Shown: positions 10,033 through 59,300 of the stretch, one piece after another
Layout of the letters: each line of letters starts with the position of its first letter
How positions within the stretch are numbered: position 1 is the stretch's first letter
Notes under the pieces: model-generated
Seen by the model: only the letters and a program-made list of their open reading frames with translations
Told to the model about the DNA's origin: nothing
Databases searched by the model: none
Origin: Antedon mediterranea
Lineage: Eukaryota > Animalia > Echinodermata
Direction: 5' to 3'
DNA: 64,000 nt
Assembly (NCBI RefSeq): GCF_964355755.1
Contig: NC_092675.1
Coordinates: 25,702,912 to 25,766,911 of the forward strand
Translations under genes and position numbers: made by a program

Positions 10033-13000
10033 ATGTTTGCGTTTGTATACACCATCGTCTGTTTTATGACATTTATGCATATATCGACATGTAGAGTCAT
10101 GTTAACATGCTTCGATACGTTCGAATTAGGTAAGTAATTTTTTTGTCTAACCTAATTTGTGTGCATATATACATAAATATTCGAGGAAATTGTGTAACTA
10201 AACAAAAAAAAATAAGTAATAATAAAATAAACTAGAGGGTACTCCGAGAGTACAAGGCTCCGCCTACTGTAAAATTCACCTACATAAAATGTCTCCGGAT
10301 ATATTTTTTTACAATTTGTTTATTAGCTCTAAATGTAAATAGGCTAACTGCACACTACAAAGTTGTGGATGAGAGTTTGGTATAATGGTTATGTACACAG
10401 CCTCTCACAGTTGAGATCGCTGGTTCAAGTCCGGACTGGACGAAGGGATGGAATTCCCAGACATCGGCGTTCCTATGGTGATTGTAATATCTGCCATTTT
10501 GGACGATATAGCAATATATCATCTCCTGTATGAGCTCAAGAAATGTTTACAATTGATGATATTTTAGGCTGTGTTTGTGGTGTATACCATCAAATAACCG
10601 TAATTTTAAACCTTAGTTTCTATTTTTAAAACTTTGTTTATAGTAGCATCTAGGCCTAATTTAATAATAATAGTGAATCTAATTATTAGTAGGCCGTATT
10701 GTCATAACCATCCCATCATACATTTCGTTTAATTTAAATGCAATTTTCTAGCAGCAATTATTCCACAAAATAATAAATAAATGAAAACAAAAAGCACCTT
10801 TAAAACGGTTGTCAAAATTGTTTAGTGTCAGAGTTGAAACCAGCTACACAAGTTTCAACAGCGTGGTCCGGTTCAGCCTCAAGGGCTGTGGACGGTGGAG
10901 ATTATTTCGGCAGCGGTTCATGCTCGCAAACGGGTAAGTCATATTGCGTATTGCATATTGTTGATGAATGTATTTTCTGTATGAAATAGGCTTAGAAATA
11001 CTTCTAACGTTGTTTTACCAGCATCCATTAAAATATTAACATATTCATATTTTTCAAACTTTTTAAAAATGAGTAAGCCTATATTTTTAAATTTTATAAT
11101 GAAAACTTTGGCTAAATATTTTTATAGGCCTAATCTTAGATTTTATAATCGTCCTTCTCGCCCCAGGTAAACTCTGCTTTCTTTACAACCCATGCAATAG
11201 TGTAAATACCATGCTTAGAAACGATGAGTCTTCAAATGACAATATTTTTCCATTGTCTACAATTCTTCTATTATCACGTTATTGCATGTAGGTTATTTTC
11301 TTTATTTTTCTTATTTTCGTTTGCCTATCTATTTCTTTTATTAAAGGTAGCCTATATACAACGTGGTGGTATGTTGACCTCGAAACGGAAATATTCATTT
11401 CGAAGATTGTTATATTTAACAGAGAAGATTGTTGTTGTAAGATTATATTAATAGTAATTTTAATGCAATTCTCTCTGGGCGGTTTCTTCCTTTTTAAATG
11501 AAATGAAATTAATTTTTCATCTTTTTCTCATTTTCAGATTGTTCAGCGGCGCTTAGAGGCACGCTATATTAAATTATGTTTAAAAGTAGGCCTATTCTAA
11601 GTATTGCATGTGTTTACTAGTCCACAATTGAGAGTGTTGAAAATCACTTAGACCACTGGGGCTTTCGTGGTATTGTTCAAATTCGATTTGATAGCGAGAC
11701 TCGACGTGGTACAGCAGAAGAGCTGAAATATGATTGTTAAGTCTTGTTTTGCATATTTTCAAATATTGCTAGTGCACCTTGGTATAGTAATATAATTGAG
11801 CTCTTTCTTATTTTTGTTTAAGTCGATTCGTTAGCCGGTCTTCGTGTTCTTGTTGGAAATAACAATGTTTCACCATTTTCCGGTAATTCGCAGTGTGGGC
11901 GGATGCTTTCACAATTTGATTCAATCGCAAGCAACCCTATATTAATAACATGCAGGCCACCTATTTCTGGGCGGTATGTTACTTTAATTAAATCAGGTCT
12001 ACGTGACCATCTTTCCTTATGTGAAGTAAAGGTTTACAAAGGTTTGTACATACTTGGTAATAGAACTTTTTTATTTTCTTTTTCGACATCATGAACTGCT
12101 TCATGGCACACATGTAAACTTAATTTGTCTAAAAAAAGCCATTAAAATCACATCTTTCCACCCAGTCAGAGAATCCTATTAATTTCTTAAAATAATAATA
12201 ATAATAGTCTGTTCTTATATAGCGCATATAAGCAGGCTCTCAATGCGCAAAAATAAAAGCAGGAAATATAATAATTGTGATAGTCTAAATTGCACCATGC
12301 AATTATTATTATTGTCATCAATATTGTTATAATAAAATAAACATGTGTATAAAAAATAATATATTTTCGAGAAAAAAAATATAATAAATATATATATTGT
12401 ATTTCTTTATAATAATCTTAATAAAACGAATGGTCGAACAAATGGATGTAAAGTTGTGTAACCAAAAAAATTGCATTAAATTACCGACTGTCGAACTTAA
12501 CAATATAAATAACATTGGTTTTGCAGATATCGGAAAACCTGAAGTTGTGTGTCCAGATGATATAGAAGTAAATGTTGAAAATAATCAGACTTTACATCAA
12601 GTTAATTGGAATCCTCCCGAAGTTTCTGATAATTTTCAGACGGATCTTTTGGCAACCTGTTTTCCATCATCAGGTTCTTTATTTCCAATCGGATTCACCC
12701 AAGTTACTTGTTCAGCAACTGACGCAACTGGCAACGAAGACTACTGTTCGTTTGTTGTAAATATTGCAGGTTGTAACAACATGGATAAAAAGTTTTTTTT
12801 TCAACCTTAATTACTCTCAGGACCCATGGGGAAGTCACATCCGAGCATTTACCTTCTTCAGATTTAAGTTTATTGTTCTGATTCTAATTGCTCATGTTAA
12901 TTGTTTAAGGGTTATTTTTAAAAGCAATTAAAGTTACATAAAACTCTTTGAGAACGTCAGCAACTCATGTTACAATTAGACACAACTGTTTCACTATTTT

Positions 13001-26071: not shown

Positions 26072-29000
26072 ATGTTTGCTCCAGTATATATCATTGTCTC
26101 TTCTATGACATTTCTGCACTTTTCAAAATCTCAAAAAAATTCATGCTACAATACTTTCGAATTAGGTAAGTAACAACCCTTCAATTTATTGTAATTTATA
26201 AATATTTAGTTGATTAGTTGAGTTAATATGTGTATCTATATAAAATGCGCATTCTGAACTGTCAGTTACTATTTACCAATTCAAAAAACGTTTGTCAAAA
26301 TTATTTAGTTTCGGAGTTCAAAGAAGCTAAACAAATTTCAACACATTCGTCCAATGCAGTTGCGGCATGGGCTGTTGATAGTGGAACAGATGGAATATTT
26401 GCCAAACATACGTGCTCTCACACTCGTAAGTGACATTACATAATTATGTAAGTTTGGGAGTCTTTTCACTTCTATATGTTATTTATTGACAACATAATAA
26501 TTAACATGGTTCACATTATGAGAAGCGACACCCAGGAGTGGACGCAGAGAGTCATTATCAATGTATTCCTTCTCTGTGTTTCGATTTAGAGTGAATTACC
26601 TACTGTTCGGACCGATGATATCGGCTAACCAACTGTAGAATGAAGTCAACTAACCATAACAGGCCCTAAATTCAATTGATAACAGAATGCAATCCACTAC
26701 TTTAATCGGTCGTAAACAGTAAAAGCATAAACTTCTTCAAAAACACCTTTTAAAAAACATATAGTATTTATAAGGTAAGATGCCCCTTATGAGTTTTACT
26801 AAATACCCTTTTTACTTTATTGTGGTAAGAATTTCATGTTTTCATAATTTTGTTTTTTAAAAGATCTCGGACCGAATAATCCATGGTGGTATGTTAACCT
26901 CGGAACGGAAACAGTTATTTCAAAGATTATCATATATAACAGAATAGACTGTTGTGGTAAGACTATTAATATGATATTCAACGGTTCAATAGGCTTATTA
27001 GTATAACATTGTTTAGTATTGTTAATATAATATTATAATAAATAAATGTCTGATTTAGTATCTAAGCTTGGTATGATACTGCTAGATCATTACCATTAAA
27101 TTAAAACAATCTGTCTTTATGTGCTTAATAGCGCATTTACATTAAAAAAAACATTTTACATTTTTTTCACACTTAAGCAACTAGATTAGCAGGTGCGGTT
27201 GTTCGTATCGGCAATAGCAATGCTTCACCATTTTCAGAAAATTCACCATGTGGCGAGAGAATTTTAAGAACAGATGCATTGACCAAAAACCCAATAGAAA
27301 TGTCTTGCAACCCACCAGTTTCTGGGCAATATGTTACCATATCGCTACCAGGAAGTCAACCACTTACTCTGTGTGAAGTAAAGGTATACAAAGGTACTGT
27401 GTACAGATTATATCAACAAATGCACTTACATGCTTAGATCTGTGACTTATATTGTCATTACCTACGGCGTTATTATTTACTCATATGTTATTCACATTTA
27501 TTTCGAAAATTCCAAAGATAACAAAGATATTATGAACTAGTTCAGGAATCGAATTTTAAAGTAGAAGACTATGACATTCCCTCAACGGAAAACAAATTCT
27601 AGCAAAAGGAACTTCCAATTTTAGATAGTTTAACATTTTATGCATGACATGCTTACATTTACAACAAATTATTTTCAAATGTCCTTAAAATAAAATAAGA
27701 AAATTTAAGGGAAGACAATTAATTATTTTTCAGATATTGGAAATCCTGAAGTAGTGTGCCCAGATGATATAACAGTAAGTGCTGGAATTAAACAATCTAT
27801 AAATCCAGTTACTTGGAATCCTCCTGAAGTTTCTGATAATTTTCATACGGATCTTTCGGCAACCTGTTCTCCGTCATCAGGTTCTTTATTTCCAGTCGGA
27901 TTCACCAAAGTTACTTGTTCAGCAAGTGACGCAACTGGAAACGAAGGAAACTGTTCGTTTGTTGTAAATATTGCAGGTCAGAAAACATATCTTTCTTTAA
28001 CGAATAAGCCGAATCGCAGAAATTAAACTAGTATGGACTATTAAAAATGCAAGATATTGTTGTTCTTTAGATGATAAGGAACCAGACCTTGTGTGCCCTA
28101 AACATATCACGGTTAAAAACAATACCGATCAGTACCAAGATCCAGTAACCTGGAATGACATCACAGCATCCGACTTGGTTGGGGGAAGCGGGGAAGTTTG
28201 GCTTCATGGTAAGGGCATCTGTATGCATTGTGATACAATTTTCTCAAACATCCATTTACTTTAAAAATCAGAATTTGCCACTAGCACCAGAAGTGGCTGA
28301 ACTTGTCTGCTGGGTAAAAATCAGACGACAGATTACCACGCAAGCTTGACAAAAAAAACTTGGTAATTTGTTATCGGGCCTAAATTAAACTTCCACAGTA
28401 GGCCTACTCCCTAACTGACCTCAGTTTGTTTCTCCTACGTTAGATATATCATCAACTTGTACACCTGAATCAGGATCAATATTTGATGTTGGTTCAACTA
28501 TTGTCACGTGTTCTGCAAGAGATGCTACTGGAAATGTAGGAAGTTGTTCGTTTGTTGTCCATGTCATAGGTCAGACATTTGAATCCAGTAAGAATAAGTT
28601 TTATATTCTAAAACAGGTATCATCAACAAATTAAAACAAAATACAGGAGGCTACTAAAATGTAATGATAAAAAACGTCGACATTCTTTAAAACACCATCT
28701 CCATTTGTTGTGAAATTGACTATATATATTATTTAAATAATATATTGTCAGAAATATCGTGCAAATAATTGTGAAGTTTTAATTGCAAGAGCCAATCAGA
28801 AAGCCTAAAATGTTGGGTTTTTAGACACGTATATTTGTTTCTGGTAAGGATACGTAAGCAAGATAAGCACTCAACCTAAATCTTTGAATGAAAACGACAA
28901 AGAATTAAAAAAAAATTTTTTATTATGCTATATAATATATCATTAATGTCCCATACAAATACTTTACCTTAGATGACGTACGATCTGTTCTTACTTGTCC

Positions 29001-30690
29001 TGAGCATATTAGTGTGGACAGTGATCAATCAAGGACAATAACTTGGAGTGACCTTACATTGACATCTATGTCAGCAACGTGTACACCACCGTCGGGGTCA
29101 GTCTTTGACGATGGTTCAACGATTGTCACGTGTTCGGCTAATGACGTTAACGGTGACATAATAAAATGTTCATTTGTTGTTCATCTTAAAGCGAGATCTA
29201 GTTCAGGTAAGTGTATGTCACTTGGAGGCCCCTCACAAGGTAGGCCTACAGTTTTTGTCGCGAGTAGCGTCTGCATAAGCTTAGCAACAGGAGGTTGAAA
29301 AATATACAACAATAATATAAACAAGGCCATATACATAGCTGCAGTCGAGTGCGCAAATTTGAGTTAGTAATCACTTAAACAGTAAACATGTTTGATATCT
29401 TTTTAAAAGTCTTTAGAGCTAGATTTAAAAAAAAATATCATTACATAATTTTATTCCAAGATATATTAGTGTAAACATAGACTGTCAATGACAGAATAAG
29501 CACATTTACATGATATGGCATGTCTGTGTGAAACGACGTCCAATAGGAACATTGCCATTCAAAATAATAATCAAACAAATAACAAACACAAGAAAGATCC
29601 AAGTATTCAAAACTTTAGTTTGGGTATGGGACATGCACATTGGAAATAAATCATACTACATCGTAACCAAACTTGTGCTGGAAAATACACTATAAGAGCA
29701 GAACTGAAAGACTAATTAGAATTTACAGCCTAACTACTTATTTTGGTTTGATGGCACTGTGGAATAAAAAATTATCATATAATTTAGAATTAAATTAAAA
29801 ATTATGCTAAACCGGACTTTTAAATGTACTGAATAATGGTTATTATGTTTTAATTATTATTGGAAGATTTTAGTATTGGTATTGTATGTCCACGTGACAT
29901 TACGTTTAATACGGAACAGCCTGTAGTTGTATGGAATAATCCAGAGTTGACAGACAACGTTGGTACTGACGTACAGCCAACTTGTAATCCACCATCTGGC
30001 TCTACGTTTTTAGTTGGATCAACCAGAGTTACTTGTTACGCAGTTTATTCTATTGTTAACATCAGCTGCTGGTTTAATGTTGGGAGTCTGATAAATGCTA
30101 CACAGTTACCGGGTTAGTAGCCTACACCTGATATCAACTATATAACACACAATAAATAGTGCAATGTTCTGCTCGCGTGCATTTTAAATATTCTTTTATT
30201 CTGTATGCTTTTAAAATCTTTCTTTAAATCAAATTTGTGATTTTCTTTATAGTTCCAAACCTATAAAAATCGGAAAAATCAATAACATTCTTAAATCTTT
30301 ATTTTCAAAGGGTATTCTCATAGTGACAACGAGTCTAAAGACACACATCACTATTTTGTAATAGGAATAGGCTGTGTAATGGTTGTTCTTATTGCATCAG
30401 TCATAATTGTGGTTATCAGGTAATGTTCATATTATTATTTACGATTACGAACCAACTTAGAGTTTCAAAAACTGTTCGATAAGATCAATTTCTATATATT
30501 TGACTCATACTTACCTAGCATTCTCAAGAAAATGTCAAGACATTATGTTTATTATTTCCTTTTGAAAACAAACCTAACTTTACTGAAATTAATTTGTTTC
30601 AGATATTACAATGCAAAGCGTAAGCAGATTACATTTGAAATCAATATGAAAGCACAAGAAGAAACAGTGACTTGGGACATAATAAAATAA
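26072..30690 (+). CDS. F-type lectin-HYRx4-TM receptor, copy 4 (~573 aa if the extra HYR2 intron is spliced)
   Basis: Exons 26072-26165, 26309-26425, 26864-26956, 27178-27393, 27734-27976, 28071-28208 plus 28444-28587 (split HYR2), 28973-29206, 29867-30112, 30311-30419 (TM), 30603-30690 (YYNAKRKQITFEINMKAQEETVTWDIIK*). Total 1722 nt, open frame. Confidence 0.8.
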
Positions 30691-31200
30691 TCTTAATTAT
30701 TCTACACTATCTTAAAAAATTCCATTAGTTAGTAATAATGTAATGCGTATGCTATATTGTAAAACTAAGAATTATATAATGGTAAACAAGGAATGCAAAT
30801 GACAAATCAGAAAACGTTCAGGGGGAACCAATTCTGATCATCATTATTATATTCGTAATGTTGAATTATTTAGGCTAGCACCTAGCCTATCGACGTAAAA
30901 TGTTATAATATTTTATTGATATATTGATGCACCAACATGTAATACAAGTGACATTCACACATTTGGATTTAGAGGGTTATCCCGAATACATAATTGTTAA
31001 CGTAATTCATTTTTATAATACCACAAAAATTACGTATAATCATAAATAGAAGGCATTTTATTACATTCACAACATTATTTAAGCTTAGGCATGCTTCGAG
31101 AACCATTTCTCATCATCAGTACAATAATAAGAAGTTATATACCCTCTTAACCACTGTATGTACATGTGACAATTAATTAGCATGATAAAAAAAGGAAAAA

Positions 31201-31750
31201 ACTAGAGGGTACTCCGAGAGTACAAACCTCCGCCTACTGTAAAATTCCCCTACATAAAATTCCCAAGAAAAATGTTTTTTTTTTTTTACATTTTTGTTAT
31301 TAATTCTAAGTGTAAATAGGTTAACTGCACACTACAAAGTTGTGGATGAGAGTGTGGTGTAATGGTTATGTATCCAGCCTCTTACAGTTGAGATTGCTGG
31401 TTGAAGTCCCACTGAGGTTTTGTTTTTTAAATTTTTTTTTGTGGACCTTGATCTTTGACCCTGACCCTTCAAAATTTAACCACAATTATATGATGAGTCA
31501 TTGTGGCTATGTTTCGTGGGAATCGGATAAAAACTGTGGTCTGTAGGCAGTAAAATAGTTTTTTGTTAGTTGTGACCTACACCTATAACCCTTTCCCTTC
31601 AAATTCGAACTCGTCCGAGCTTTTTGGCCATAGATCATTATTGTGGGCAAATTTGGTGAGAAGAGGATAAAAACTGTGGCCTCCAGGCTGTTCACAGACA
31701 CACACACAAACATACAGGGGTGAAAACATAACCTCCTTGGCGGAGGTAAT
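31201..31750 (-). mobile_element. Helentron-associated non-autonomous element (HINE/DINE-like)
   Basis: Minus strand begins ATTACCTCCGCCAAGGAGGTTATGTTTTCACCC and ends GGCGGAGGTTTGTACTCTCGGAGTACCCTCTAGT (subterminal inverted repeat, hairpin, CTAGT); internal TGACCTTTGA-like motifs and (CA)n. Confidence 0.8.
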
Positions 31751-32848
31751 AACATAACAATGAAATAGGCAGCAGAGATGATTTCACACGTGAATTAAAG
31801 GGCGTCCTTAAGTTTGTATGCGGAATCTGCAGAATATAGAACCGTTAAGCATTGGGCATTAGCAAGGTCCTTTTACAGCCAATCTTAATCTTCGATCAAT
31901 TTTCTAATGCTAATACTAGGCATACATTGCATCTATTTTATTCGATGCAACGGATCTAAAATGGATAACAAAAGTGCATAAACATAACTTACTTTCCGGT
32001 AATTACGCCAAATTATTCTGTTGTTCCGCCAACGGCATTGGTTTTTGCCCACTTGAGTTGATCATTCCATTGCAAATACATCTTCAGCCCGCGCCATATT
32101 TACCAGCTCATAATAAGACTAACGTGATAATAATACTAGTTGGAATATATATCAAAAACAATACGTTAAGGCATAGGTGTCGTTTTGGATTGTTTTATTT
32201 GATGTAAAATAGAATTAGCTATGCCAGACAACTAATACATTTAACATATTTTTTATATTAAAGTACACCCTATAGGTGAAATTTATTATTGTCTAATTAA
32301 TCATATTAATATGAATAAATAAAAACTAAAATGTATTTTTATTGTCTCCGTTTGTTTATTATTATGTCAAGAAGATATGTATTCATCGTGAATATCGTAA
32401 TGTTTTTTCTTTTTTTTAGAAGTGAATAATTGAACCTTAGCAGCATTTAGTTGAACCAGACAGTTGTATATAGTAAAGTTCACTAATAGTCAAATGGTTG
32501 AACAGAATTAAGGACAAGACATCATGAGAAAATCCATTACTTGTATGTGTTATTATTATTTGGTACCGGTATGAAATACTTCAGAAATTAAAATGCGTTA
32601 TTTAATGATGGTGATTACGTAAGGCGGAAAATAAAAAGCTTTAATTGGATCGCTTCTATAAACTTTGTACGGAAGAATGAATGTCCGGAAGATGTATGTA
32701 TCCTGAAAGTTCAATAATTAATGTGTGTAAAAAGACAAAGTATATGTAAACATAACAGCTTGTGTAACCACATTTGTGCATTATTTGTGGATGAAGTATG
32801 ACCTCACCTCAAACTCAAATTCAGACTTAAACATACCTATAATGAAAC

Positions 32849-35800
32849 ATGTTTTCTAGAATATATATTCCTGTATCTTTATTGACGCTTGTTGAATCTT
32901 ATAATCCATTTGTCGCCGAACGTTATGGTAAGTTCTGCACTCCATTATTTAAGTATCACATAATAAAATAAATAAATCATGAGAAAGTAGCAGACTTGGT
33001 GTGATGTTTTCTAAAAAAACATAAACTGTCGTGTGTTTGACAGTTTCTCCATCATGTTGACCAAAAAAATCATCAATAAATTACTCCGCCGGCCATACTG
33101 TAGACATTAGAGATATGCTGAATGTATAACAAGCTACAAAAGTTTGTGTTTTGAACAGATCTGGTTTCACGGGGAAAAACTGCAAATCAGAGTTCAACGC
33201 ATGGACCTAGTGTGGCAAACCAGCAGTTGATGGCCGTAAGGATGGAAACTATTGGGCTCATTCTTGTACCCATACAGGTAAGTAGGCCTAATCATGTCTT
33301 AAACGTAAGGTAACAGTTTAGGGACTACGATAAGTATGCAATGTACTTTCAACATCGTTTCCTTAATATGTAAAGTAAGACATTTGTAAACAATATCCCA
33401 GTATAATCTCTTATATTATTACGACCTATTATGCATTCGCAAAAGACGGGTTAATACAAACAGAACATAAGTTTTCCATCTTTTAAGCTCGGTTTCCATT
33501 AGCTAGGACATAACACAGGGAAGTAAGGGCAACGCCAGTGATATTACCAATCGCAAGCTGTCATTGGTCATTTCACTTGCACTGCGTCTACGTGGGGACC
33601 AAGCTTTCAAACATTATTTTACGTACTAGTGTAAATACTAATTATTTAAAAGTTTCTTTCACATTCGTTTACTTTATCTGCAATCAATTTAAGCAGCACA
33701 CGAGACAAACCCTTGGTGGTATGTTGATCTCGGATCATCAAGACTTATTGCAAAGATCATCATATATAACAGAGTTGATTGTTGCGGTAAGAGTTTTATC
33801 AGTACATTATTTTGCTAATTCCTGTATTTATTTAAACAGGCAAAAAGATAATTATAATACTATGGAATCGTAAAAATCAATTGGAAACGTTTATGAAAAA
33901 AAAACACCTTTTACAGCGTTGCAACTAGTAGTAGGCCTAAGGCAAAACTAAAACTTCAACTCTTAACTAGTTGTTCTATTTTTTGTTTTAAGGAGAACGG
34001 TTAGATGGAGCTATTTTGGGTGTAGGAAACGACAAGGTATCGCCGTTTAGAGGAAATTCACATTGCGGGACATTAGTTATAGCCGATAATAGCCGGCGCA
34101 TACAACGACTGTGCTTTTTAGAAGGCCAGTACATTAGTGTTTATATACCAAAAAAGGAGGCTCAGTCTTTTTCTATTTGTGAACTAGAAGCATACGTAGG
34201 TATGTACAGTATAATCTGAAATAATTAAATTCACAGAAAAATAATAATTAATTAATATTTTGTCACCGACATGGTTAATTTATGATTTGATTTAATTTCT
34301 GGTATTCTTCATTCGATGAAATTTGAAAAATTATTGGTTGCTTTACCGCTTTCCTGTTTATTGTAATAATAAAGGTCTTTGTGAATAATACACCAATAAC
34401 GACATAGAAACATCATAAATATATAATATCTCTTTATATAATGTATTTAGAAATCCTTCCAAACAAAAAAAAAGCTAATTATTTTTTATTATGTTACAGA
34501 TACACAGAAACCTTTTGTTATTTGTCCAGATGACATTGAGATAAATTCTGATGCTAATCAGAATTTAAATCCTATTACATGGCGAGATGCGGTGGCATTT
34601 GACAACACTGGTCATAAAAAGAATAGGCTTAAGTTACGCTTCCATGGTCATAATAGACTAGTAGCCACTTGCTCAAAGCCATCTGGTTCATTATTTGAAA
34701 TTGGGTTCACCAAGATTTCTTGTTCTGCAACTGACCGAAGTGGAAATGAAGGCAATTGTTCGTTTGTTGTTCATGTCAAGGGTTAGACATTGCGTTTTTG
34801 TTTCATTGTTTAGGCCTAATATCTTAGGTTACTGGGAGTATTGTAGGTGTCACTACCAGATTCTTAGCATGTATTCCGCAGTAGGCCTATCATGGGAAAA
34901 TTACGGCATCTCACGTGGTGCTTGTATTATGTAAGGTTATTACGGTCTATGATAACTACACTAGGTAAAACAACATCATATTAATATAGGGTATATATCT
35001 ATTGTTTTCAAAGTCAAACTGAAGTAATCGTTATTTCCAATGAAACTTACTTAGCAAAATAATCATTTCTTTCATTTCTAAAACCAACTAAATTAGACAT
35101 CAAAGAGCACGCTTTCACTTGTCCCGAACACATTACTGTGAAAAATGACGTTGACCAGTCTGAAGATCCTGTAACTTGGAATAAACCCACAGCGATCAAC
35201 AAAGAACATAAACCTATACCAATCACATGTACGCATGCATCTGGATCAATCTTTGACGTTGGTTCAACTATTGTCACGTGTTCCTCAACAAGAGGTACTG
35301 ACAAAGAAAGAAGTTGCTCATTTGTTGTACATGTCATAGGTCAGATATTTCTTTCAGGTAAGTCTCGTTGTTTTATTTACTCATAAGTGGTGTCCATTTA
35401 TACGGCTGTAACTTGTGAAAAGTTAAATCACATTTCTTGTTCTTACAATACCTTTTTTTTTGTAGATGTCCCTATCGTGATGTGTCCTCAAAGCATCTCA
35501 TTGTTCTCTGATAAATCTTTGCAACCAGTGACATGGAACAAGCCAAAGGTGGTGGACGATTTTGATAGCGATTTAGTGGCAACCTGCATACCTTTCTCTG
35601 GTGATTTCTTTGCACGTGGATCAACACAGGTTACATGTTCAGTGACCAATTCATTCGGAAACAATGGCAACTGTTCTTTTGTTGTTGATGTCACGAGTCT
35701 CAAGTCACCACAAGGTGAGAATTATTCTTGTCACTGCCTTCAATTATCGTATAAGAATTCCCTCTAAATTATATTACACGTGTAGGACTACAGTATAACA

Positions 35801-40100: not shown

Positions 40101-41860
40101 TGTAGAATATACAGCATTGAGAATCCGATACAGGATCATATCAGCTTGGAATTTGTTATGATTTACAATTTACTATTCTGTCTTTTAGAAGGTCAGTACG
40201 TTAGTGTTTACATACCAAAAATGGAAGCTCAGTCTTTTACTATTTGCGAACTAGAAGCATACATAGGTATTTATATTTTTAGACAATTTAATATACAGCA
40301 CAGAAAAGTTCTTACTATAGGTCACTGACAATGTTAACCCGTAAAGCCGTCGATCCTATTAATATATAATTGCATAGAAGATGATGTGTAGGAAATTGTA
40401 AATAATTTTCTTGAAAAATAGTCATTAATCTCATATCGATAATTGGTTAACATCAAAATTCACTTATCAGATAAATTAAGGCAGTCTTTCAAAAATCCAT
40501 CTATCACATACAGATACAGGGAGCCCTTATGTTTTTTTGTCCAAACGACATTGAGGTGAGCTCTGAAGTGGACCAGAACGTGAATGCTGCTTCATGGTAT
40601 AGTCTTACGGTTATTGACAATTATTTCGTTGACAATCACATAGTAGCCACTTGCTCAAAGCCATCTGGTTCCATATTTGAAGTCGGGTTCACCAAGATTA
40701 ATTGTTTGGCAACTGACCAAAGTGGAAATGAAGGCAATTGTTCGTTTGTAGTTCATGTCAGAGGTTAGATTTTGAGTTTTCTTTATTGTTGATATTGGAA
40801 GATAGTAGACCCTGCGCATACAAAATGGTGGATTAATTTAAATTCTTGCTGTCATTTTATCTATATAAAACATACATATCATTATAATAAAGGTCGACCG
40901 GAATGTTTTCATTCAAATTCAGCATGTTAATACTAGCCAAGTACTACTAAACAAGTTAAAACAACAAAGTCGAATACGGTACTAGTATGTAAAACGTTGT
41001 TTTCTAAAATCAAACGTAAGTACACTACGTCTACGCATTATATCGACACTTGTTTGTTTATGGCGATGTTTTACACTAATTTAAATTTCTACAGTAAACT
41101 AAATTTAGATGACAAAGGGCCTACCCTCACTTGTCCCGAACACATTACCGTGAACAATGACGTTGACCAATCTGAAAATCCTGTAACTTGGAACGAACCC
41201 ACAGTAATCGAAAACGTACATAAAAATATATCAGCAACGTGTTCACATGCATCGGGATCAAATCTTTGACGTTGGTTCAACTAATTGTCACGTGTTCAGC
41301 AACAGACGGTACTGGAATGTAGGAAGTTGTTCGTTTGTTGTCCATGTCATAGGTCAGACATTCCGTTCAGGTAAACACTTAATTAAGATTGTTTAATTGA
41401 CTGAAGTGGTATTTCCATTTAGAACCGAAACAGTACTTCAATCTCCAAACTGTTTCTCAACCTACAATCAGAACGTTTGATGGCAAAATGTTATGGGAGA
41501 AACCTACTGGGGTCTACCTATATCTATTTTCTATTACTTATAATATACGGTGCCTAATATAACATAGTTACATACAGACTTAAGATATGTGTACCTTATA
41601 TTATTTTAAAATAAATGTTAGCAAGATCTTTTCTTCTGTAGATGTCCCTATCGTGATGTGTCCTCATAGCATCTCAACGTGCTCGGAAAAATCCTTGCAA
41701 CCAGTGACATGGAATGATCCAAAGGTGATGAACGATTTTATATCGATTTAGTAGCAACCTGCATACCTTCATCTGGTGATCTCTTTTCACGTGGATCAAC
41801 ATTCAACACAAGTCACATGTTCAGTAACCAATTCATTTGGAAACAAAGGCAACTGTTTCT
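37151..41860 (+). pseudogene. F-type lectin-HYRx3 receptor, copy 6, multiply disrupted and 3'-truncated
   Basis: Signal exon 37151-37227 has an in-frame TAA. Lectin exon ~39143-39264 has a 1-nt deletion and a GT>TT donor. Exon 39743-39832 is intact. Only the 3' half of the third lectin exon remains (~40180-40266). HYR1 40514-40763 is open. HYR2 41109-41370 and HYR3 41642-~41860 are frameshifted. No TM or tail exon. Confidence 0.88.
38024..38320 (+). mobile_element. tRNA-derived SINE in copy 6 intron 1
   Basis: A box TGGCGCAGTG, B box GGTTCGAATCC, body TCCTTAGGCAAGATACTTTAC...CCTCTCCACCCAGGTGTATAAAT, L2-like tail CAGCGCTTAGAG plus (TTA)n. Confidence 0.75.
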
Positions 41861-42116
41861 TTGAGCGAGCATAGTCAATGTTAATGAGTTCAACTACAAT
41901 TATGCCTAAGCCTATGTCAGGGAAGAGTAAGATTAACTCTTCCCTGATTATGTAAACAAGATATCATGCTAACTTGTAAATAATAATAAGGTAAAAAGCC
42001 AATAGAAAAAGGTCAATGTAATAAGACACAATTCATTGTTATTTGGCACCGGAATAAAATCTCCAAACTGTGCCAGTACCAAGTATGTAATGACGTTGTT
42101 TAATAGATATACCGGT

Positions 42117-48325: not shown

Positions 48326-49037
48326 TAGAAGTACAAAAATACCACACATTTTACAAAACTATTATTTATGTAAACATTAAATAAAAAAGGTTATTTAGGC
48401 CTACTAACAGTAAGCCCAGAGGTATTCCAACTAGTTTTATGCCATTTTTTTCAAGGGAGGAATTTCAGACATTTAAAAGTTAAAATTACACTTTAGGAGG
48501 AGGTAAGCTCACTTGATAAACTACAGTGACAAAACAGAACCCCAACAATTCATGATCAACTTTAATTAAAAGATTAGAAAAAATGTTAAACATATATCAT
48601 TATTATTGATAGATAGATAGATAGATCGACTAATGTACATTTAAGATAAGTGAGACAGTACACAAATGTAAAAATGTGTTCGACTTTTCAATCCTGTTTA
48701 AATATAGTTGTGAACAATGCTTTTTAAAATGTTACTATTATATTGTATATATTAAATTTAGGTAAAACTATAAATACATTTCTAAACCCTAACTAAATTG
48801 TTTTATTTAAACTATACAAATATACAATTTTAAAAAGTGCCTAAATTTAACCTTATTTTAGAATTTTAACACATATTTTGGTCCTTTTGTGTAGGCTTCA
48901 CCGATCGGGATAGAATTGCTTCTTCTTATGTTTTAGAGAGTTTGGTTATTCTATTTGTATGTGTATTCTAAAAATAGATATTTTTCAACATCAGCAGCGT
49001 TATTTAAATTACATTATAAACATATATGAAACTATTC

Positions 49038-49416
49038 TTATTCTGTAGGACTACTTGTTGATACTCGAATGTTTCCCAGAAATCGGCCAGCTGATTCAAA
49101 TACGGGGTCAGCAAATGTCCTTACACAGTGTGACCAACTCTTGCCTACCCAGTCAAGAGAAACTACCCACATCTTAAGACAAGGCATTACATACCAAATG
49201 TGACAAAACGTTAAAAATGCAAATTGAATTCCTGTAAGAACAACCAACAACAACATTCTATTAAAATTAAACTGTGTTGATTAGACATTGCACCAACCCG
49301 ACGTTGGGCTGCCTTATACAAGCTTCGCTTTTTAGGAATCTTGCCCCTCTTATTTTAATCATTTTTACTGTTAATTTTTAATTTCTATGAAAGAAAAGAA
49401 GAGAAATAAATGTTAC

Positions 49417-49449
<33 letters not shown>

Positions 49450-50798
49450 CGTAATTCTACCGAATATTTATTTAAAGAATGTTAGAAAATGTGTGGAATA
49501 AATTCGCAAATTGGGCTCGAATCTACTATACTTCACTCATGAAGCAACAGGTTATGCACATACGAGATACTTTTTAGTTTAGTTGATTCAGGGGATTCAA
49601 TTTAATTATTCAATTTTAATTATTCAATATTTAATTAAATAATTTCCCCGATTTTAAGAATTCACAAGTTGTTTTAGTATGGGGCTTAAACCTACTTCCT
49701 CTCAAAACTTTTAATTTCAACCAGTACATTAATATTTAAATGATACAGTACTTTACTCACTACTCACCCCAACACAATGAAAACGGTAAACTGCATACGG
49801 CTGTTATTATCTTATAACACCAAAGTTTTGACGAGGAAAATGTCAAGAAACTATATTCCCACACAAAATCAAATGAGTGCATGCCATCTGGTTCGGCAAA
49901 TACGTCATCAAATCCCACCTAAAAGTTAATGAAAAATAATTTTTTATAGAAACAATAATCATTTGGTTGGTTAGCTATCATCAGTTCATATACGGAACTT
50001 GGTGTTGCTATATGTCCGTTAATGTATCACATCAGGCACAGAACATTGATTCTAAACCGCTCGGTGATATACTGAAATTTAATTAATTAATTTGAAACGA
50101 TAAAGATGAGGAAATCTGTGAGAACCGAGATGCGAACCCGGAACCTTCTGCTTAATATGCAGATTTACTAACTATTAGACCACTGGGTCTTTCCTGGTAT
50201 TGTTCAAACCCGATTGGATAGCGACTCTTCTGTGTGCTACGGCGGAACAGCACTTCTAGTCCCTCAATTGTACGCACGCGCATCAGAGATCAAATTGATA
50301 CGCCCTCATCTTTCAGTATTTTATTCATGAAGCTGGATCTCCGAAGAGATACTTTTATATATATAAACACATCAGGCGCAGAACATTAATTCTAAACCGC
50401 CCGGTGATATACTGACATTTAATTGATTAATTTGAAACGATAATGATGAGGAAATCTGTGAGAATAAGAAAAAGTATATATTTATATTTAAAGTACAAGT
50501 ACAAGTAAATATATAATTATATTTATTTACTTGTACTTGTATTTGAAATATTTCATGTAGGCCTTAACACGTCACGTCGAATAGCGATTTCCTCAAACTA
50601 AGTTGTGCCATAATAACCTGATAAAATAATACTTACTCGAACGTCGTCATTAACTTGATAGGGATCTCTCTCTGTCATGGTTGCCATCACGTTTTGGTTG
50701 TGCTTCTTTGGGCCCGTATCTTCCGTGTACGGAACAGTTAAGTCATGTTGTGATAGTCTTCGCCCAATTTCGGAATCAATCTTTTCACCGTTTGACAT
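49038..50798 (-). CDS. CAV1: Caveolin (caveolin-1/3-like, ~168 aa; exact orthology not resolvable)
   Basis: Exons 50798-50637 (MSNGEKIDSE...ERDPYQVNDDVR), 49918-49768 (VGFDDVFAEPDGMHSFDFVWEYSFLTFSSSKLWCYKI: caveolin signature FEDVIAEP and scaffolding domain), 49231-49038 (GIQFAFLTFCHIWYVMPC...FADPVFESAGRFLGNIRV). 507 nt in frame. Confidence 0.93.
50031..50463. repeat. ~93-bp direct repeats flanking a minus-strand tRNA-like segment in a caveolin intron
   Basis: ATCAGGC.CAGAACATT.ATTCTAAACCGC.CGGTGATATACTGA...GAGGAAATCTGTGAGAA at ~50031 and ~50371; part of the internal sequence recurs at ~11650-11725. Confidence 0.7.
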
Positions 50799-52724
50799 AA
50801 TTGTTGGCTTTTACAAAAATAATTAATTAAAAATTAATTAGTTAGTTATGACGCGTAACGTGTGTGATGTGACACCACATAGAATGAAAATCGTTTCTAG
50901 GACATACCCATTAGATGTGACGGATTCGAACTTCGTAATTGTGTTTGATCTGATATTCCCTTTTAATATTAAAACAAAAAAACAAAATAGCCGAAAGCTG
51001 TCCGCCCCAAATTATAGTAAGCTATCTGACTAAAATCCTCAGTTGGGTGAGTTAGCTGTTTTATTCTCATTGGTAAATTCTTTCAAGAAGTATTTCCCTG
51101 TGTTGGTTTGCCGAAGTCTTTAGATGTTCCAAGGAAAGGCGATAAACAACAAGTTGGAATTTGTTGCAAAGGAAGGAAATTATTTACGTTTGGTAGCATC
51201 TCTATTTCTAAATTATAAAACAGTATATAGTAAGACTATTAGACTCCTTAAAACCCCTTAGTACCGAATTCATAGAGAGAGAGCCATTTCCCCTATACCA
51301 TGTTCTTTTGTTCATCATACCATAATAATTTAATTCGAGTTCTCTATCCAAATGCTCATACTTATACGTGATACGTGTTTTTCAGTAGTAATTTCTAAAA
51401 CGCAAGAATGAAAATGGGAATACATTTTCTTGATCTCTTTTCATTATATAAAGTTACTATAAACCCTAGTGTTATTATATTCCATAAACTATAGGTTGAG
51501 TTGAATGATTCATCATTCAATAATTCTAAATTAGACTTTCCTTATTCTATTGTCACTTATCCTGTTACTCTTGCGTCAGGATTTATTCCTCAATTGGAAC
51601 TATTTATAATTGTACCTAATTAAGTTGTTATGATAATAATATCCTTACCTTTTTGCATTGTTCCCAAAAGTAATTAGACATATCCAAAATAATACATTTG
51701 TAAGCTATAACAACTTACACGAAACCTAAACATTTAAGCCTAACCTTGCAATGGCGGAACTGTATTATCCAATACTAAAACGACTTTGAATGTACATCTT
51801 GAACCCTGACCGTATGGTTATGGATATTCTTAGTAACATTTTTTTTGGTGCAACTAAAAAGAAACTTAATGAACCTCGTAATACCTCAGTGTAACTTCTG
51901 TAAGTACTTGCTGTATGCTTCATAATTTCGTTCAATTCACAAAACGCTGTTGAAATTATCCTATGCTGCGTTCGGTCGTATCTCCAGTCTACGCAGTTAA
52001 CGAGTATGAAATCCTCTTAAGCAGACTAATAAAGACATTTCTTAGCTTAGACTAGACATGTTTTCCGTTCAAAAGCACAACCAGTTTTTGCAAAACAATT
52101 TCTTGTAGGCCTACGTATGCATATTGTTAATTAGCCATGACAACAACATAGTCAAGTCAAATAAATGTACGTTATAAAAACTAAGAGAACCATATTGGTA
52201 TAGTTTGAAAATGTTAACAAGAAACGACACTTTTGGTCCAATTCCAGATTTAATTGATTCAGGAAATGAAACAATTGGCGGAAACGCACATATGCTAATG
52301 TTGATGGATTTTTAACTTTATTACATTTAGAAATATTTTTTTTAAAATTTACATTATTTAAAATTATTTATATTAAAATTATGTAATGATCTATGATTTA
52401 AGGTTGACCCTCATTTCTTCTAAACATCCTACTTCTCTTCTGAAATCGAAATTTTTCTTTCTAAAACCAAAATTGTCCTCTAAAATCGAAATTTTCTTCT
52501 AAAATCTAACCTTTAGGCCTAATCATCTATAATTAACCTAAGTTTCTTCTAATTGACAACATCTACATATTTTTATCGACCTATCCTGCTTTTTTTTTCT
52601 AAAATAGTCTTCATCTTCTTCAATCCGACATCATTCCTTCATTTCATTAATTTTAAATGAAGTTATAAAACTATTATTATGCCTATATTTATGTGTTTAA
52701 TTTGCATCTAAATTGTGTCCATAC

Positions 52725-52787
52725 CGTATTATAATGAAGACATGCTTGTTCGTAGATAGGTCCTTCCTCCGTACGTTTAAAATCCAT
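52725..52787 (-). CDS. Possible upstream coding exon of caveolin (long isoform)
   Basis: TGCAG acceptor with exon starting at 52792, ATG at 52787, MDFKRTEEGPIYEQACLHYNT, then GTATGG donor (phase 0). Joins in frame to an AG acceptor 9 nt upstream of the 50798 ATG. Confidence 0.4.
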
Positions 52788-55700
52788 AAAATCTGCAAAT
52801 ACAATTTAACATCATAATTTAAAAATGGTGTGATCATTATAATGTTTATAGGCCTAGTTCAAATAGTAGTTTGACATTGAGTGAATGTGCTATTTTAAGA
52901 TATAGATATATCGCTAGATTCTCACTTCCTGTAGAAACTCATACAAATTACAAAAAAAAAAATCCTATTAAATCAGTTTGTACTGCAGTATTCTAGCACA
53001 CAAGGTAGGCAATCACTGCAGTAAAAGTATCACTGCTAAATACATTGTAAGCAAGTAACATGTCCATTTTTATGTTCTCAGAAAGTTCATTAGGCTTAAT
53101 TGTTGACAGTTATATCCGCCAAGTTCACTCTGTTTGAAATTAGTCATAATTAGTTTAATTACAGAATGCGGACATGAAACGTGAAAAAGTGAACAACTTC
53201 AACGTTAAAATCATATTATTATCATTAAATTCTAAAGCTCAGAACATGGAAATAAATAGTAAAAGTAAATAAAATAAAATTATCAGTCTCCCACCAAAAC
53301 AAACTAGTCTAGCATGAAACCCGCCGTACATGCAGTCTGTATGACTATACTTAATTGAAATTAATTAATCGTTTTAAAAATTACATAGAAATACAGAACA
53401 ATAGAAAGTGAACTTTGAATTTCCTTTTTAATATTAATAAATATTTATATTATATCAATTTTAAATAATTAAAATAATAAAAATGTTGATTGACAGTTAA
53501 AACAAAAATTGGCAAAGAAAAATAAAACTTGAATTAGTAAATCAAACTTAAAGAAATTAATAAAGAAAGAAAAGGAGAATTTAGGCATAAGATTTTGATA
53601 ACGAAGGAAGAAGGAAGGCAATTCTAAAGTTTACAAATTCTAGATATAGATCTAGAGATTGGAAACAGTTCAAGCAATACACTTACATTCACAGGAAAGC
53701 ACACTCAGTCTATTCTGAGCCACACCATACACATTATGATTAAGTTTCCACAAAATACAAACTAATTTAGGCCTATAAATAGAATATGGCAAAACGAAAA
53801 TTCTAGTATATGTGCATTCCTATAACCCAATTTATGTCCTTTAAATCGACTTAAAACGCCTTACTTACCTACCTATATTCTAGGCCTATTTCTCCCAAAA
53901 AGTTAGATGCTGCAAGCTTTTCTGTGTATACATTATTAACTATGCATAAATCGTAAGGCTTGGCATTACACATATATATCCAATTTAAATACCTTGGCCC
54001 TCTAACAGCAAAGATCACTGTACTATTTGACGCACTGATGACACTTCCTGAAATTTTTGAAGTAACCGAAAAATATTAATTCAATGTTACGGTGCCAACA
54101 ATTATGCATGCTAACGCGTCAATATAGATAATATTTAAACATAAAAGATACTGCAATTTTATTAGTATTATTGGCTTTTGGAATGAGTATTTATCGTGAA
54201 TAAATTATCAGGAAATCTTTGTGTGTGGGGAATTGTGGTTCAGGACTATCAATTAATTTTATGAAGCTCTACTTCCAACAAATATTTAAAACAGGACGGA
54301 TCGAGAGTACACACGTAGTGGTGCGCTAGCTCCCTTCACCCCTCCCCCAAATGAAATTAAACACCTTTTTCATAATATGTCTAGAGTATAGCATATTATC
54401 TGTACGGAATGTACAAGTGAAAACGGCAAAGGAAGTCTTCTAATATATAGTTTCAAAAATCCTGGATTCCTCCTGGAAAATACATTGGAATCTGGTCTAA
54501 AGATGACAACACATATTTTCATTTACTCCTTATAATTGTTATGATTATGTCATAATGAGATGGAAGTAGTTCTGCAACTGACATTTGTTATCATAGTACT
54601 GTACTACATTCTGACTCCTATCCTTGCGTAATTCAATTAATTAATAGTTTTGTTTGAACTTGAAATTAAACTGCATTCAGAATTACTGTTTTATAATTCT
54701 CATGTCTTATAAACATTTCAATGACTAGGTCTATTCAATATAAGGTCAGTTGATAATTAAATATATAGCTGATAGGTCATGTATAAGAATTAATATTGTA
54801 GGAATAACAAACGGAAAGACATTTATTAAAAAAATACATTTTAAAATGCACGATAGGGATCATCTAAACAAATTATTTTACTGCAGTTAGGCCTACTACA
54901 TTAAAAAAAACATCTATAGCGTAAAATTTGCGTCGTTCAGCAGTCACTGCAATAAACAAATTGTATGATCCCTCCACCCCGCCAGCGATATTTCTTTTCG
55001 TACACAAGTTGGGGACCCCTCATGAAACGTCACAAACTACACATGAATATTCATTAGTCATATCCAAAGTTATGGCGTAAGAATTGAGCTAACTACATTT
55101 CGCAAATGCAAACGCTTTCTGTCTAGCCGTCTGTGTAGTCGAGTGGATAAGACTATGAACTTTAAATGGGTTCAATTTCCATGAGCAACTTCTTTATTTA
55201 GAGGGTAAGGTTTAGTTATATTTAGGAAGTAGTTCGGCTATCTTTCACATAAGAGGTCTGCAACTTATGTACGAGAAAAAAAATAGCATCCCGCCAAAAC
55301 ATTACGCATCCCACAATAAGCTTTCTAAATAATTTAAATGTACTTGCTGCAATGACTGCAGTACAATAAATGTTGACATTTCCCCTTTAACTGTTGATTA
55401 TTTTAACATTAAAAATAAAGGCACATACAGTAAACAAAACATGCAATGTACAGTAATATATTTTTAACGAATATTTTTTTATTTCTTTTAAAAAAAAATA
55501 CTTTTTCTGAAAAACAACAAAACATAGCTGGATAATAAAAATATAAGTTATTTCTACAAATTAACAGTACAGGTCACATAACATAACACAAATAAACCTG
55601 TTTTACTTAATTGCACTGACAAAACTGATTATTGCTCAGTTATACATTATACTGGACGAATATATCTGGATACAAAAATAGAAAAAAATGATTTAAAAAC

Positions 55701-56344
55701 ATAACAAAATATAAATATATTATAAGCAGAGGAAACGTATTACAAATACTTTGACATTAAATACTACAAGTTTACAATGAAAGGACCTTCAATGTTAGGT
55801 AACGACATAGTGAATATATAAACGATCCTTATAGGAAATCCTTGATATAAAATGCTGACAACTTAGATATAAACATTTGTATGCAAGATTTTTATCTTAC
55901 AAAGTAGTAATAAAGAGCTTTCGATTTGCGAAGACTGACGACCAAAGATACAACAAGATACAAAATCATGTTTTTATGTCATTCAAGTTTAAAGCATCCA
56001 GTACAATTACAGTGTTAAATACATCAATAAATACATTTGGGGGTAACAAAGTCGTTACAAATTATATTTTCTTAGTGGTTGTTTTAATCAAATTAGTAAG
56101 CAGCATGATTGTGGAAAAACATCCAGTAATAAATACATATAAATAACTGTCATTATGTATTACATGATTTTAGACTGGCCACATGGAAAATCCAGGTGTC
56201 ATTATTCTTATTACAATAATAATAACAATCATGATTGATTGAGATTGGTACAGAAGTAATTATATATTTTTATATATTCTATAATTAGAATATTTCATTT
56301 GGGTTTGTTTTGTGAATTTACTAGTACTAGAATTAGTATTTTTG

Positions 56345-59300
56345 TTATGAATGTGCTTTGATTTTCGAATCTTCTTTTATTTTCCAGAACATAAGCTGTA
56401 GACATGATTTAGCATCTTCTGTACTGTCATGTCCATCCACTGAAAAAAAAAAATATAAAAAAATAAACATAATAATACTAACACCCTGGGCTGGCATTTA
56501 TCAACCTCTTTGAGCCCGTTCGGACTTTACAATTTACATGTGTAATGGTCACTTGTGATGTAATTTTGAGATAAACCAGCTGCTTCAAAACCCCAACTCA
56601 TGAGGTGGATTTTTCCATTACTCTACCCCTTAAACTGCAAGCTGATTAACCACAAGATAAGGAGCAATTTTACTAGTGTAAAAAGATGCATGAAATATGA
56701 CCTTGCTGGGTAAACATCTTTGTTTTGTAGAGGTTACCAAGTATAATGAAAACATTTAATTGCAACTCTTGTATTGGTAGTGTCTGGTTTTAGAAAGTTG
56801 AAAGTTCCAAATGAGCTGTTTAAGCCACAAGGTGAAGACAAACTTTAAAATAAAAGCACTCAGAAACTGAGTGAAGTACTTGGCAACATATGGCGCAGTT
56901 AAAAGAATTCAGATTGTTTTTTTTAATTTGTGAAGTTATTAATGGACCGATTTTCTTGAATTTCAATAAGCATATTTTGGAAATATTCAGAATGATAAAT
57001 TGAAATTGTAGATGCTATCGTGCTAAGAAACAAAGCAAGAACTATTTAGCAATATTATTTACTGTATTTTTACAACCAAATGATTTTTCTGATCTTACCA
57101 TTGTTTTGTATTATTGTGTTTAAGCAATCTGCCATCAAGGTTCTCAGAGCTTTCTTAAATGGTGGACCTCTTCTATGTGGAAATACTATTGCTGTATCAA
57201 TCACTGTACTGTGTATGAGCTGTATAGAAAGCCATGAAATCAACATTATTCACTGATTTCAGAGTTATGATTTGTCATTCAAATAAGCATCATGTTTGAA
57301 TTTGAACATTTGATAAAGTAGATTTAGAAAAAAAATCAATACTTTATATAGGTAACTACATCATAATTTAGTCCTTTGAATAAAATATCAAGTCATTGGT
57401 GTCTTGTGCATGGTAAATCAGTGTACTGATAATGATATGAGGTGTAGGGGATCATGTTCTAGGTCATAGTAGGAGAGGGTAGAAAGAGTAGAGGATCGTT
57501 TTCTATGTGCTGATAATAGCATGGGAAAGTGTAGGGGTTCATTGTGCTTATAATAGTATGAGAAAGAGTAGGGGATCATTGTGCTTATAATAGTATGAGA
57601 AAGAGTAGGGGATCATTGTGCTTATAATAGTATAGCCCCTTTCTCACAGAGCTGTGTGCCAGGAATATTGCGGGAATATACCATTACCATGCCGGTATGG
57701 TTTTCTGTGTCTTGGCATCATGCCGGCATCGACATGACCTGCTTTAGACCTAGTAATATTCTAGGGATATTCCCCGCAATGCCAGACGGGCATTCTGTGA
57801 GAACGTAACGCTGTTATATTCCGGGGTTCCCCGTCGAGGCTTTGACACCTTGCACGGTCAGGCAGGAGAAAGAGTAAAGGTCTATTTGTGCTGATAATGG
57901 TAGAACAAAGAGAAAGGAATCGTCCCTTATTGTGCTGATATGGCATTGTTATTGGTGTGGGCCCAATTTTCAGTTGACTTGAGGCCTATTTACATTTTAG
58001 ATGAAAAGAAAGCATGTGGAAATGTATACCTTGAGAGCTAATAAATCACTTTCTAAGCTGTGTCCTAATAAAATTGTGTCAGCACTGAATAAACTGAGTA
58101 ATACTGCTTGAACATCTCGTATTGATGTAGTCACTGACTTCATATCATTCTCTGTTATGCCACTGAATCTAAAAATAAACACACAATAGGCAATTACACA
58201 AACATCTGTTGGCAAAATATGAGAAAGTGCATGTCTAGCTACAAACAAAGACCAATACATACAACAATTGAACACGCATAGCATTGTTTATAAAAAGTGA
58301 AACCCTTTTCACCAATTTTCATAAATATTTAATATAAAGTTATGGGCTATGCTGTAATAGTTTATTTTCAATATACTACACTATAATGCCCAGTTCTAAA
58401 TGTTGTGACCACAAAGACCTTGAACTGTGATTGAAAGAAAAGCTTTGCACATACATTTTGTTTACATCACATGTCTACTGAGCTGTTTGATTCGCATGAG
58501 TGCTCATGAACATGTGACAACTCATTTCCTGAGCTCTGATTAGTTGCATATTAAAACTATTCAACTACTATTTCAAAGAAGCAAATGCATATGCATATAA
58601 GCTGATGCTTTTGATTCATGCACAACTTCACCTAGTGAAAAACAGGCTTATACCATATACTGTAAAGGCCAACATTTTCGCAGCCCTAAATTTTCGCGAT
58701 TTTACATTTTTAATTATTTCGCAACCTTTTATTTTCCAGATTTGAGTTTCTTGTGTAATTTGTTGAACCAAATTGGTGAATGTATTTCGCCTCCTTGATG
58801 AACGTCAAACAATTGAATAGCGTTGAGTAACATTACAGAATACACGATTGTAAATTTAGGGATGTAAATAAATAATGGCTAACTACAGTAAGCCTAGGTT
58901 ATGCCTGATCGACTGTAAACAACATTGTTGGGAATTTCGCACGCCCTTAATTTCGCGATCGTTATTCAAGCATTACAATACCTTGTGTTGTGATCTACAA
59001 TTGGATTAGGTGGTTTCACTAGACTATCATAAACCTTTTCCATAGATTCTCCAATCACTGTTACTCTTGTCAACTCTAAACCCTTGTTAGTGTAGCACTA
59101 CAAACAGAATAAATGAAAATAATACTGGTTATTAATGAAGAAACAAGGTATAAAATATATTTTAACGAAATCTGTTTGATTTAAAAAAATGAAGATGGTT
59201 TTAGTAAAAAATTGCTATTTTGGATCATGGAAAAAGATATTTGTGGCAGTGACATATATAGAAGATAGACAACTTCATCTCATTTTATTTAATATAAAAA

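Follow-up and report, generated by a model that had tools for sequence, protein, structure and literature searches.

Probable intron gain through an insertion in one paralog of a hyalin-like gene array of the feather star Antedon mediterranea

The gene array and the split exon of copy 4

The stretch of DNA analysed here, called the window, comprises 64,000 nucleotides of the feather star Antedon mediterranea (contig NC_092675.1, positions 25,702,912 to 25,766,911) and holds seven tandem copies of one gene. The gene product combines a signal peptide and an F5/8C-like domain with three or four HYR domains and a membrane anchor. Copy 4, which is the subject of this work, has 11 coding exons and encodes 573 amino acids, with a signal peptide, an F5/8C-like domain of the galactose-binding type, four HYR domains, a transmembrane helix and a short tail. 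A search with the first half of its HYR2 exon found the hyalin-like RefSeq protein XP_071954523.1 (called P0001) of the same species, one protein among six candidates. Our own model of copy 4 matches it over all 573 residues, including the junction 28208/28444. Since this automatically predicted model has the same 11 exons and uses the same junction, the 235-nt intron discussed below is already part of the public gene model; the record itself gives no sign that the intron is a paralog-specific gain.

In an alignment of the seven HYR2 exons, the exon is uninterrupted in copies 1, 2, 3, 5, 6 and 7 and is split in copy 4 only, by a foreign segment, which agrees with what an earlier note, made from the letters alone, had described. 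This is one of the 25 HYR exons across the window. The features of the locus are collected in Table 1.

Table 1. Features of copy 4, of the insert and of the antisense transcript, in window coordinates
Feature	Position	Strand	Basis
Copy 4 gene	26072..30690	+	own spliced model, identical to XP_071954523.1; domains by Pfam
Downstream antisense exon, antisense to the HYR1 coding exon	27845..27934	-	90-nt loose end of X9 contig; 29 of 30 displayed letters match; pyrimidine tract and CAG before
HYR2 exon, 5' part, host-derived (exon 6a)	28071..28174	+	81-83% identical to copies 1-3 over 99-115 nt; unchanged in organism B
Foreign insert, ~267 nt, in place of ~11 host nt	28175..28441		seven-copy alignment; junction table; single bridging DNA contigs in X1 and X5
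Exonised part of insert, 34 nt, 56% GC, 11 new residues in a loop	28175..28208	+	spliced model; alignment
Donor GTAAGG, insert-derived	28209..28214	+	8.8 bits, higher than 16 of the 33 other annotated donors; best in 28071-28587
New phase-1 GT-AG intron, 235 nt (~256 nt in organism B)	28209..28443	+	same junction in RefSeq protein
Antisense exon within the new intron	28257..28344	-	X9 contig; preceded by AG and followed by GTAAGT on the minus strand; organism B only
In-frame stop TAA if the intron is retained	28262..28264	+	read-through translation
Overlapping branch-like motifs CTAAC and CTGAC, insert-derived	28411..28419	+	CTRAC at -45 to -12 in just 3 of 33 other introns
Acceptor AG, probably taken over from the Lys-Asp codons (AAA GAT) of the host	28442..28443	+	the AG is part of the exon in copy 7 and in a paralog outside the window
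HYR2 exon, 3' part (exon 6b)	28444..28587	+	82-89% identical to paralogs; joined to exon 7 in X8 contig
Upstream antisense exon (3' end), between copies 4 and 5	31993..32022	-	X9 loose end; 30 of 30 letters identical, with GTAAGT next

A DNA tree of HYR1 and HYR2 separates copies 1-4 from copies 5-7 (100/100), and copy 4 sits within a 100/100 clade of otherwise intron-less copies. In the protein tree, P0001 is nested among proteins that lack the seven extra residues of copy 4, with two homologs from Anneissia japonica outside. These two also lack the seven residues, as judged from a comparison of proteins, in which intron positions are not visible. Because one gain is far simpler than many losses, we interpret the intron as a paralog-specific gain through an insertion, in line with what had been proposed from the letters and also consistent with the junction of the RefSeq model and with the location of the indels in the intron part (see below).

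The array itself extends further than the seven copies: the paralogs P0003 and P0007 lie outside the window on the same 31.7-Mb contig, which makes at least two further members. In copy 6, the HYR2 and HYR3 exons are frameshifted (40500-41900), which marks either a decaying copy or assembly errors. For copy 3, a RefSeq isoform (P0005, 19557-21563) joins exon 2 directly to HYR1, and the two F5/8C-like exons that it skips exist as open sequence at about 20550 and 20940.

The insert and its splice sites

The left edge of the insert lies at 28175-28178 and the right edge at 28441-28444, an ambiguity that arises because the AG of the acceptor is common to the host sequence in paralogs. Lys-Asp stands at the acceptor position in copy 7, P0007 and P0003, and the codons are AAA GAT both in copy 7 and in a DNA contig matching P0003, from which it follows that an AG at this position predates the insert in both clades of the array. 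These alignments are most simply read as a loss of about 11 host bases and a conversion of the host AG into the acceptor, with the donor, the branch motif and the pyrimidine tract having arrived in the insert. The insert had been thought to carry its own splice sites, and this holds for the latter three elements, while the AG is probably host-derived.

The joints bear a deletion and no repeats. No target-site duplication is seen at the insert, the approximately 11 host nucleotides being lost rather than duplicated, and direct repeats at its ends do not go beyond shuffled sequences (p 0.10-0.995). The degenerate inverted repeats that had been suspected at the ends turn out to be no better than shuffles in nine of nine settings (p = 0.63 to 0.99), and the repeat listing contains no pair that joins the two ends. 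The predicted fold of the insert has z = -1.73, with 9 of 200 shuffles equally stable, and is not taken as structure. The best other match within the window (57364-57430) scores 45, compared to 37-44 for eight shuffles, and is thus at shuffle level. Intronization and tandem duplication were rejected as origins, since nothing in the host exon or in any other part of the window resembles the insert significantly.

The splice signals are of the spliceosomal U2 type, with GT-AG ends, a donor consensus, a branch motif and a pyrimidine tract, all located where the earlier note had put them, from CATG|GTAAGG at 28209 to the AG. To score the sites, matrices were built from the 33 other annotated introns in the window. 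The CTAAC lies at -33 of the new intron, and the acceptor scores 2.9, which is above 6 of the 33 other introns with a matrix trained on AT-rich introns; for comparison, the acceptor of exon 6a scores 10.8. The other listed acceptor in phase with the new donor (28399) runs into a stop. The GC content of the new intron, 0.40, is higher than in all 33 other introns (0.23-0.35). Removal of the 235 nt in phase 1 restores the reading frame with 11 residues gained and 4 lost, a net change of +7, and unspliced copy 4 meets the TAA given in Table 1; the restored frame, the net gain and the stop are as previously described. When random fragments of the window were put in place of the insert, 21 of 5000 gave an equally good in-frame pair of donor and acceptor. 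The quality of the pair is thus more than chance, and survival bias also favours inserts of this kind.

At the protein level, an AlphaFold2 model built from 10 sequences (mean pLDDT 64, pTM 0.33) places the new residues in a low-confidence loop between two strands, with pLDDT values below 50 for residues 291-300; elsewhere in HYR2 the block averages are 70-79, like those of HYR1. In copy 5, HYR1 has an in-frame basic extension of 14 residues (34586-34660) in approximately the same loop as the gain in HYR2 of copy 4. The new residues recall what we take to be a glycine-rich motif of SRCR domains, a resemblance that found no support in the searches.

Transcripts and DNA from other samples

The gene is present in nine sequencing runs from three studies, and five of these were examined, called X1, X5, X7, X8 and X9. 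X8 and X9 are taken as likely RNA from their behaviour, the kind of run not being on record.

In X8, contigs show GT-AG joints of copy 4 between exons 1-2, 6b-7, 7-8, 8-9 and 9-10, with 0-2 letters of difference from copy 4 in the pieces listed. Copy 4 is therefore transcribed and exon 6b is used. The 28208/28444 junction is uncovered by the contigs of both runs: X8 is empty over 28040-28488, as it is at the end of exon 4 and the start of exon 5, and X9 is empty over exon 6a and the junction. No joint of exon 5 to exon 6b or to exon 7 is found among the joints listed for X8. A joint of exons 5-6a in the same run, with a depth of 57, probably comes from a paralog and was not counted. Since the sites are canonical, the five other junctions of copy 4 are spliced in one run, and all of the placed indels are intronic (see below), we consider it highly probable that splicing at 28208/28444 takes place as annotated.

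The insert is bridged by DNA contigs in X1 (organism A, no differences) and in X5 (organism B, ca 3% diverged), and a DNA contig of X7 covers its left joint and 28175-28356. It is thus not an assembly artefact. An empty allele, which the earlier note had suggested looking for, was not seen in the DNA contigs of X1, X5 and X7. Two joints in X1 that skip the insert carry the letters of copy 1 and of the sequence matching P0003, respectively, and are paralogs rather than empty alleles.

The comparison with X5 gives a view of how the new intron has changed. It differs by 7 substitutions and 4 indels, with the donor, the branch motif and the AG unchanged. This amounts to 11 changes in 235 intron nucleotides, compared to 2, both substitutions, in 206 nucleotides of flanking exon (Fisher p = 0.024). 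The low divergence of the exon near the insert is not specific, since the short intron 5 is also unchanged over 94 nt in organism B. Five contigs allow every gap to be placed, and introns hold 12 of their 12 indels (P = 0.005), four of these in the new intron; two contigs with 23 and 14 gap letters, not fully placed, are left out of this count. Among the 40 of 183 differences considered, some of the later of which mix paralogs, 13 of 17 changed codons are non-synonymous and none is a stop, a ratio close to neutral. Exons 1-3, which are fully covered, have 7 non-synonymous and 2 synonymous codons relative to organism B. For both halves of HYR2, dN/dS against copies 1-3 is 0.11-0.32, similar to other pairs. 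From these sequence comparisons, the frame of copy 4 is protected while its residues change fast, through either relaxed or diversifying selection.

As a separate observation, exons 1-3 of copy 4 (26072-26956) have more differences per base than nearby introns, possibly a result of diversifying selection.

We now turn to the opposite strand. In X9 (organism B), one contig of 208 nt with a depth of 16.8 lies on 28257-28344 inside the new intron, and its loose ends match two further places (Table 1). Both joints of the contig have the form GTAAGT ... pyrimidines AG on the minus strand, and the DNA contigs of X5 and X7 are continuous across them. The donor of the internal antisense exon sits in 21 nt that are present in organism B and missing from the window, where a weaker GTAAAT is retained three bases away (score 2.1 compared to 5.8). 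No long reading frame was found in the part of the transcript that is seen. This single contig of one run is best read as a spliced natural antisense transcript that starts between copies 4 and 5. The acceptor of the third antisense exon is a cryptic one within a coding exon and points to an opportunistic use of splice-like sites. What is likely new in the present work is this use of the insert as an antisense exon in a relative, whereas the sense intron is already annotated and the route of its gain already known. The start of the antisense transcript may lie near 32100, diverging from copy 5.

Origin of the insert and comparison with known intron gains

Copy 4 carries a real and probably functional paralog-specific intron gain of a known kind. 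The explanation that we favour, and regard as likely, is that a single foreign insertion, probably during DNA break repair, is spliced as a new 235-nt intron and leaves 11 codons behind. A segment of ca 267 nt would have entered HYR2 of copy 4 once, supplying a donor, a branch motif and a pyrimidine tract and landing against a host AG that would thereby have become the acceptor. The first 34 nt would then stay in the mRNA and lengthen an insertion-tolerant loop by 11 codons, while transcripts that retain the intron would meet the stop and be subject to nonsense-mediated decay. The allele could have persisted in a gene with close paralogs, kept because the insert splices and adds its residues to a tolerant loop, and antisense transcription from between copies 4 and 5 would likely have recruited part of the insert as an exon secondarily.

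Break repair is suggested here by what is absent, namely by the fact that no source sequence was found. Searches for the source of the insert returned nothing in Rfam, in phage records or in metagenome contigs (with a 28-nt pattern), and searches with its peptide and frames returned nothing in PDB, Pfam, a protein atlas or short protein fragments, being weak for 11 residues. As to a filler source such as mitochondrial DNA, the six frames of the insert under code 9 contain nothing recognisable by eye.

As another option, the insert could be what is left of an old transposon or introner, with ends and sister copies now more than 10% diverged through decay. Introners can encode or co-opt splice sites and are reported in a sea urchin (PMC12130899), and a co-opted host AG would fit this. 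The insert is not an active introner: its inverted repeats do not reach significance, and the DNA contigs of X1, X5 and X7 contain no second copy at 90% identity or more (some records were filtered, and older copies would escape). An old relic could be hidden by this same threshold, but it shows no significant end repeats, inverted or direct, the host bases were lost and not duplicated, and the best other match in the window, 45 compared to 37-44 for shuffles, reveals no relative. In addition, X5 and X7 each have only one contig on the insert and X1 has single-contig depth there, unlike the true repeat at 29320-29368, which reaches a bin depth of 189,731. We therefore consider a decayed introner unlikely.

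That repeat belongs to a short element of very high copy number in intron 7 of copy 4 (29314-29368), with many loose ends in all four runs.

Slightly less likely is that a fragment of an unrelated gene, consisting of the end of an exon and a whole intron, was captured and joined at an AG|AT microhomology, that is, an intron transposition. The insert does finish just where a complete 3' splice signal with a textbook branch motif ends, its first 34 nt form an open, GC-rich stretch, only 21 of the 5000 random fragments perform as well, and the new residues presumably recall the glycine-rich SRCR motif mentioned above. However, the peptide searches of PDB, Pfam and the atlas, weak as they are for 11 residues, gave no donor gene, and selection alone enriches for inserts that splice. 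An extended version is similarly improbable: a captured gene fragment placed on a host AG would have made, in one step, a sense intron, 11 loop residues and an antisense exon that maybe tunes this paralog.

It is of the same low probability that the intron is not used as annotated, with exon 6a skipped, the insert retained and the transcript degraded, or copy 4 a young pseudogene. This would agree with the missing junction contig (X8 also misses constitutive exon ends), with the near-neutral ratio among the listed amino-acid changes, with the weak score of the acceptor, and with copy 6, which shows that members of the array decay. On the other hand, X8 has exon 6b spliced to exon 7 and lists no 5-6b or 5-7 joint, the frame is intact over 573 codons, the indels avoid exons, and the acceptor of exon 6a scores 10.8. 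Finally, it is very improbable that two events took place, one inserting a short coding piece and the other, separately, an intron, for although the last exonised codons (Leu-His) resemble a Leu-His of the host, three changes would be needed within 40 nt, or that an ancestral intron was lost in all other copies, which would require it to have disappeared from both clades of the array and from 24 other HYR exons.

The favoured single insertion can be compared with known cases, as far as the accessible parts of the cited papers describe them. Seven ways in which introns could be gained have been put forward, and repeats do not reliably mark gains by break repair (PMC3443670). Some of the insertion-derived introns of Drosophila contain stops and one is partly exonised, namely in Bap170, where 218 bp were gained and 206 are spliced out; of 307 gains, 267 are without effect on the protein, and the other 40 alter it, mostly by 1-3 residues, with three cases of 4-5 (PMC2809761). 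Copy 4 shares with these novel introns an insertion of unknown source, an in-frame stop and a part of the insert left in the exon, but it gains 11 residues and loses 4, and its donor is not weak. In Daphnia, gains are attributed to break repair and most sources are unknown (PMC4202315). The copy 4 insert is likewise a one-off with later internal indels (PMC4202315, PMC3443670), while it differs in having no flanking direct repeat, a deletion of host bases and no empty allele in three DNA runs. With introners, which are defined by similar copies and reported in a sea urchin (PMC12130899), it shares splice sites that are partly carried and partly co-opted from the host, and it lacks similar copies (at 90% identity or more in X1, X5 and X7, and in the window), terminal repeats and a target duplication. 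A literature search, as far as the texts were accessible, found no paper on this gene or intron.

It is important to note that this is one event in one gene, whose function is putative. In the accessible portions of PMC4202315 and PMC2809761, the source of most gained introns is unknown. Here, with six adjacent intron-less paralogs, joints defined at the level of bases and a close relative, a whole-genome search could name the source of the insert. The case also documents an imprecise gain with an unusually large change of the coding sequence (+11 and -4 residues) that survives in a tandem array. Should the antisense exon be confirmed, a single insertion has altered exon structure on both strands, and if the capture of a gene fragment were true and the donor gene found, this would be a traceable intron transposition in an animal, used on both strands.

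Elsewhere in the window, a dispersed repeat of ca 215 nt occurs between copies 4 and 5 (31196-31409) and in intron 1 of copy 2 (10226-10432), the two being 85% identical. The minus strand of 48400-64000 contains exon-like frames of another gene, presumably, to judge from their translations, a homolog of RNA exonuclease 1 (REXO1).
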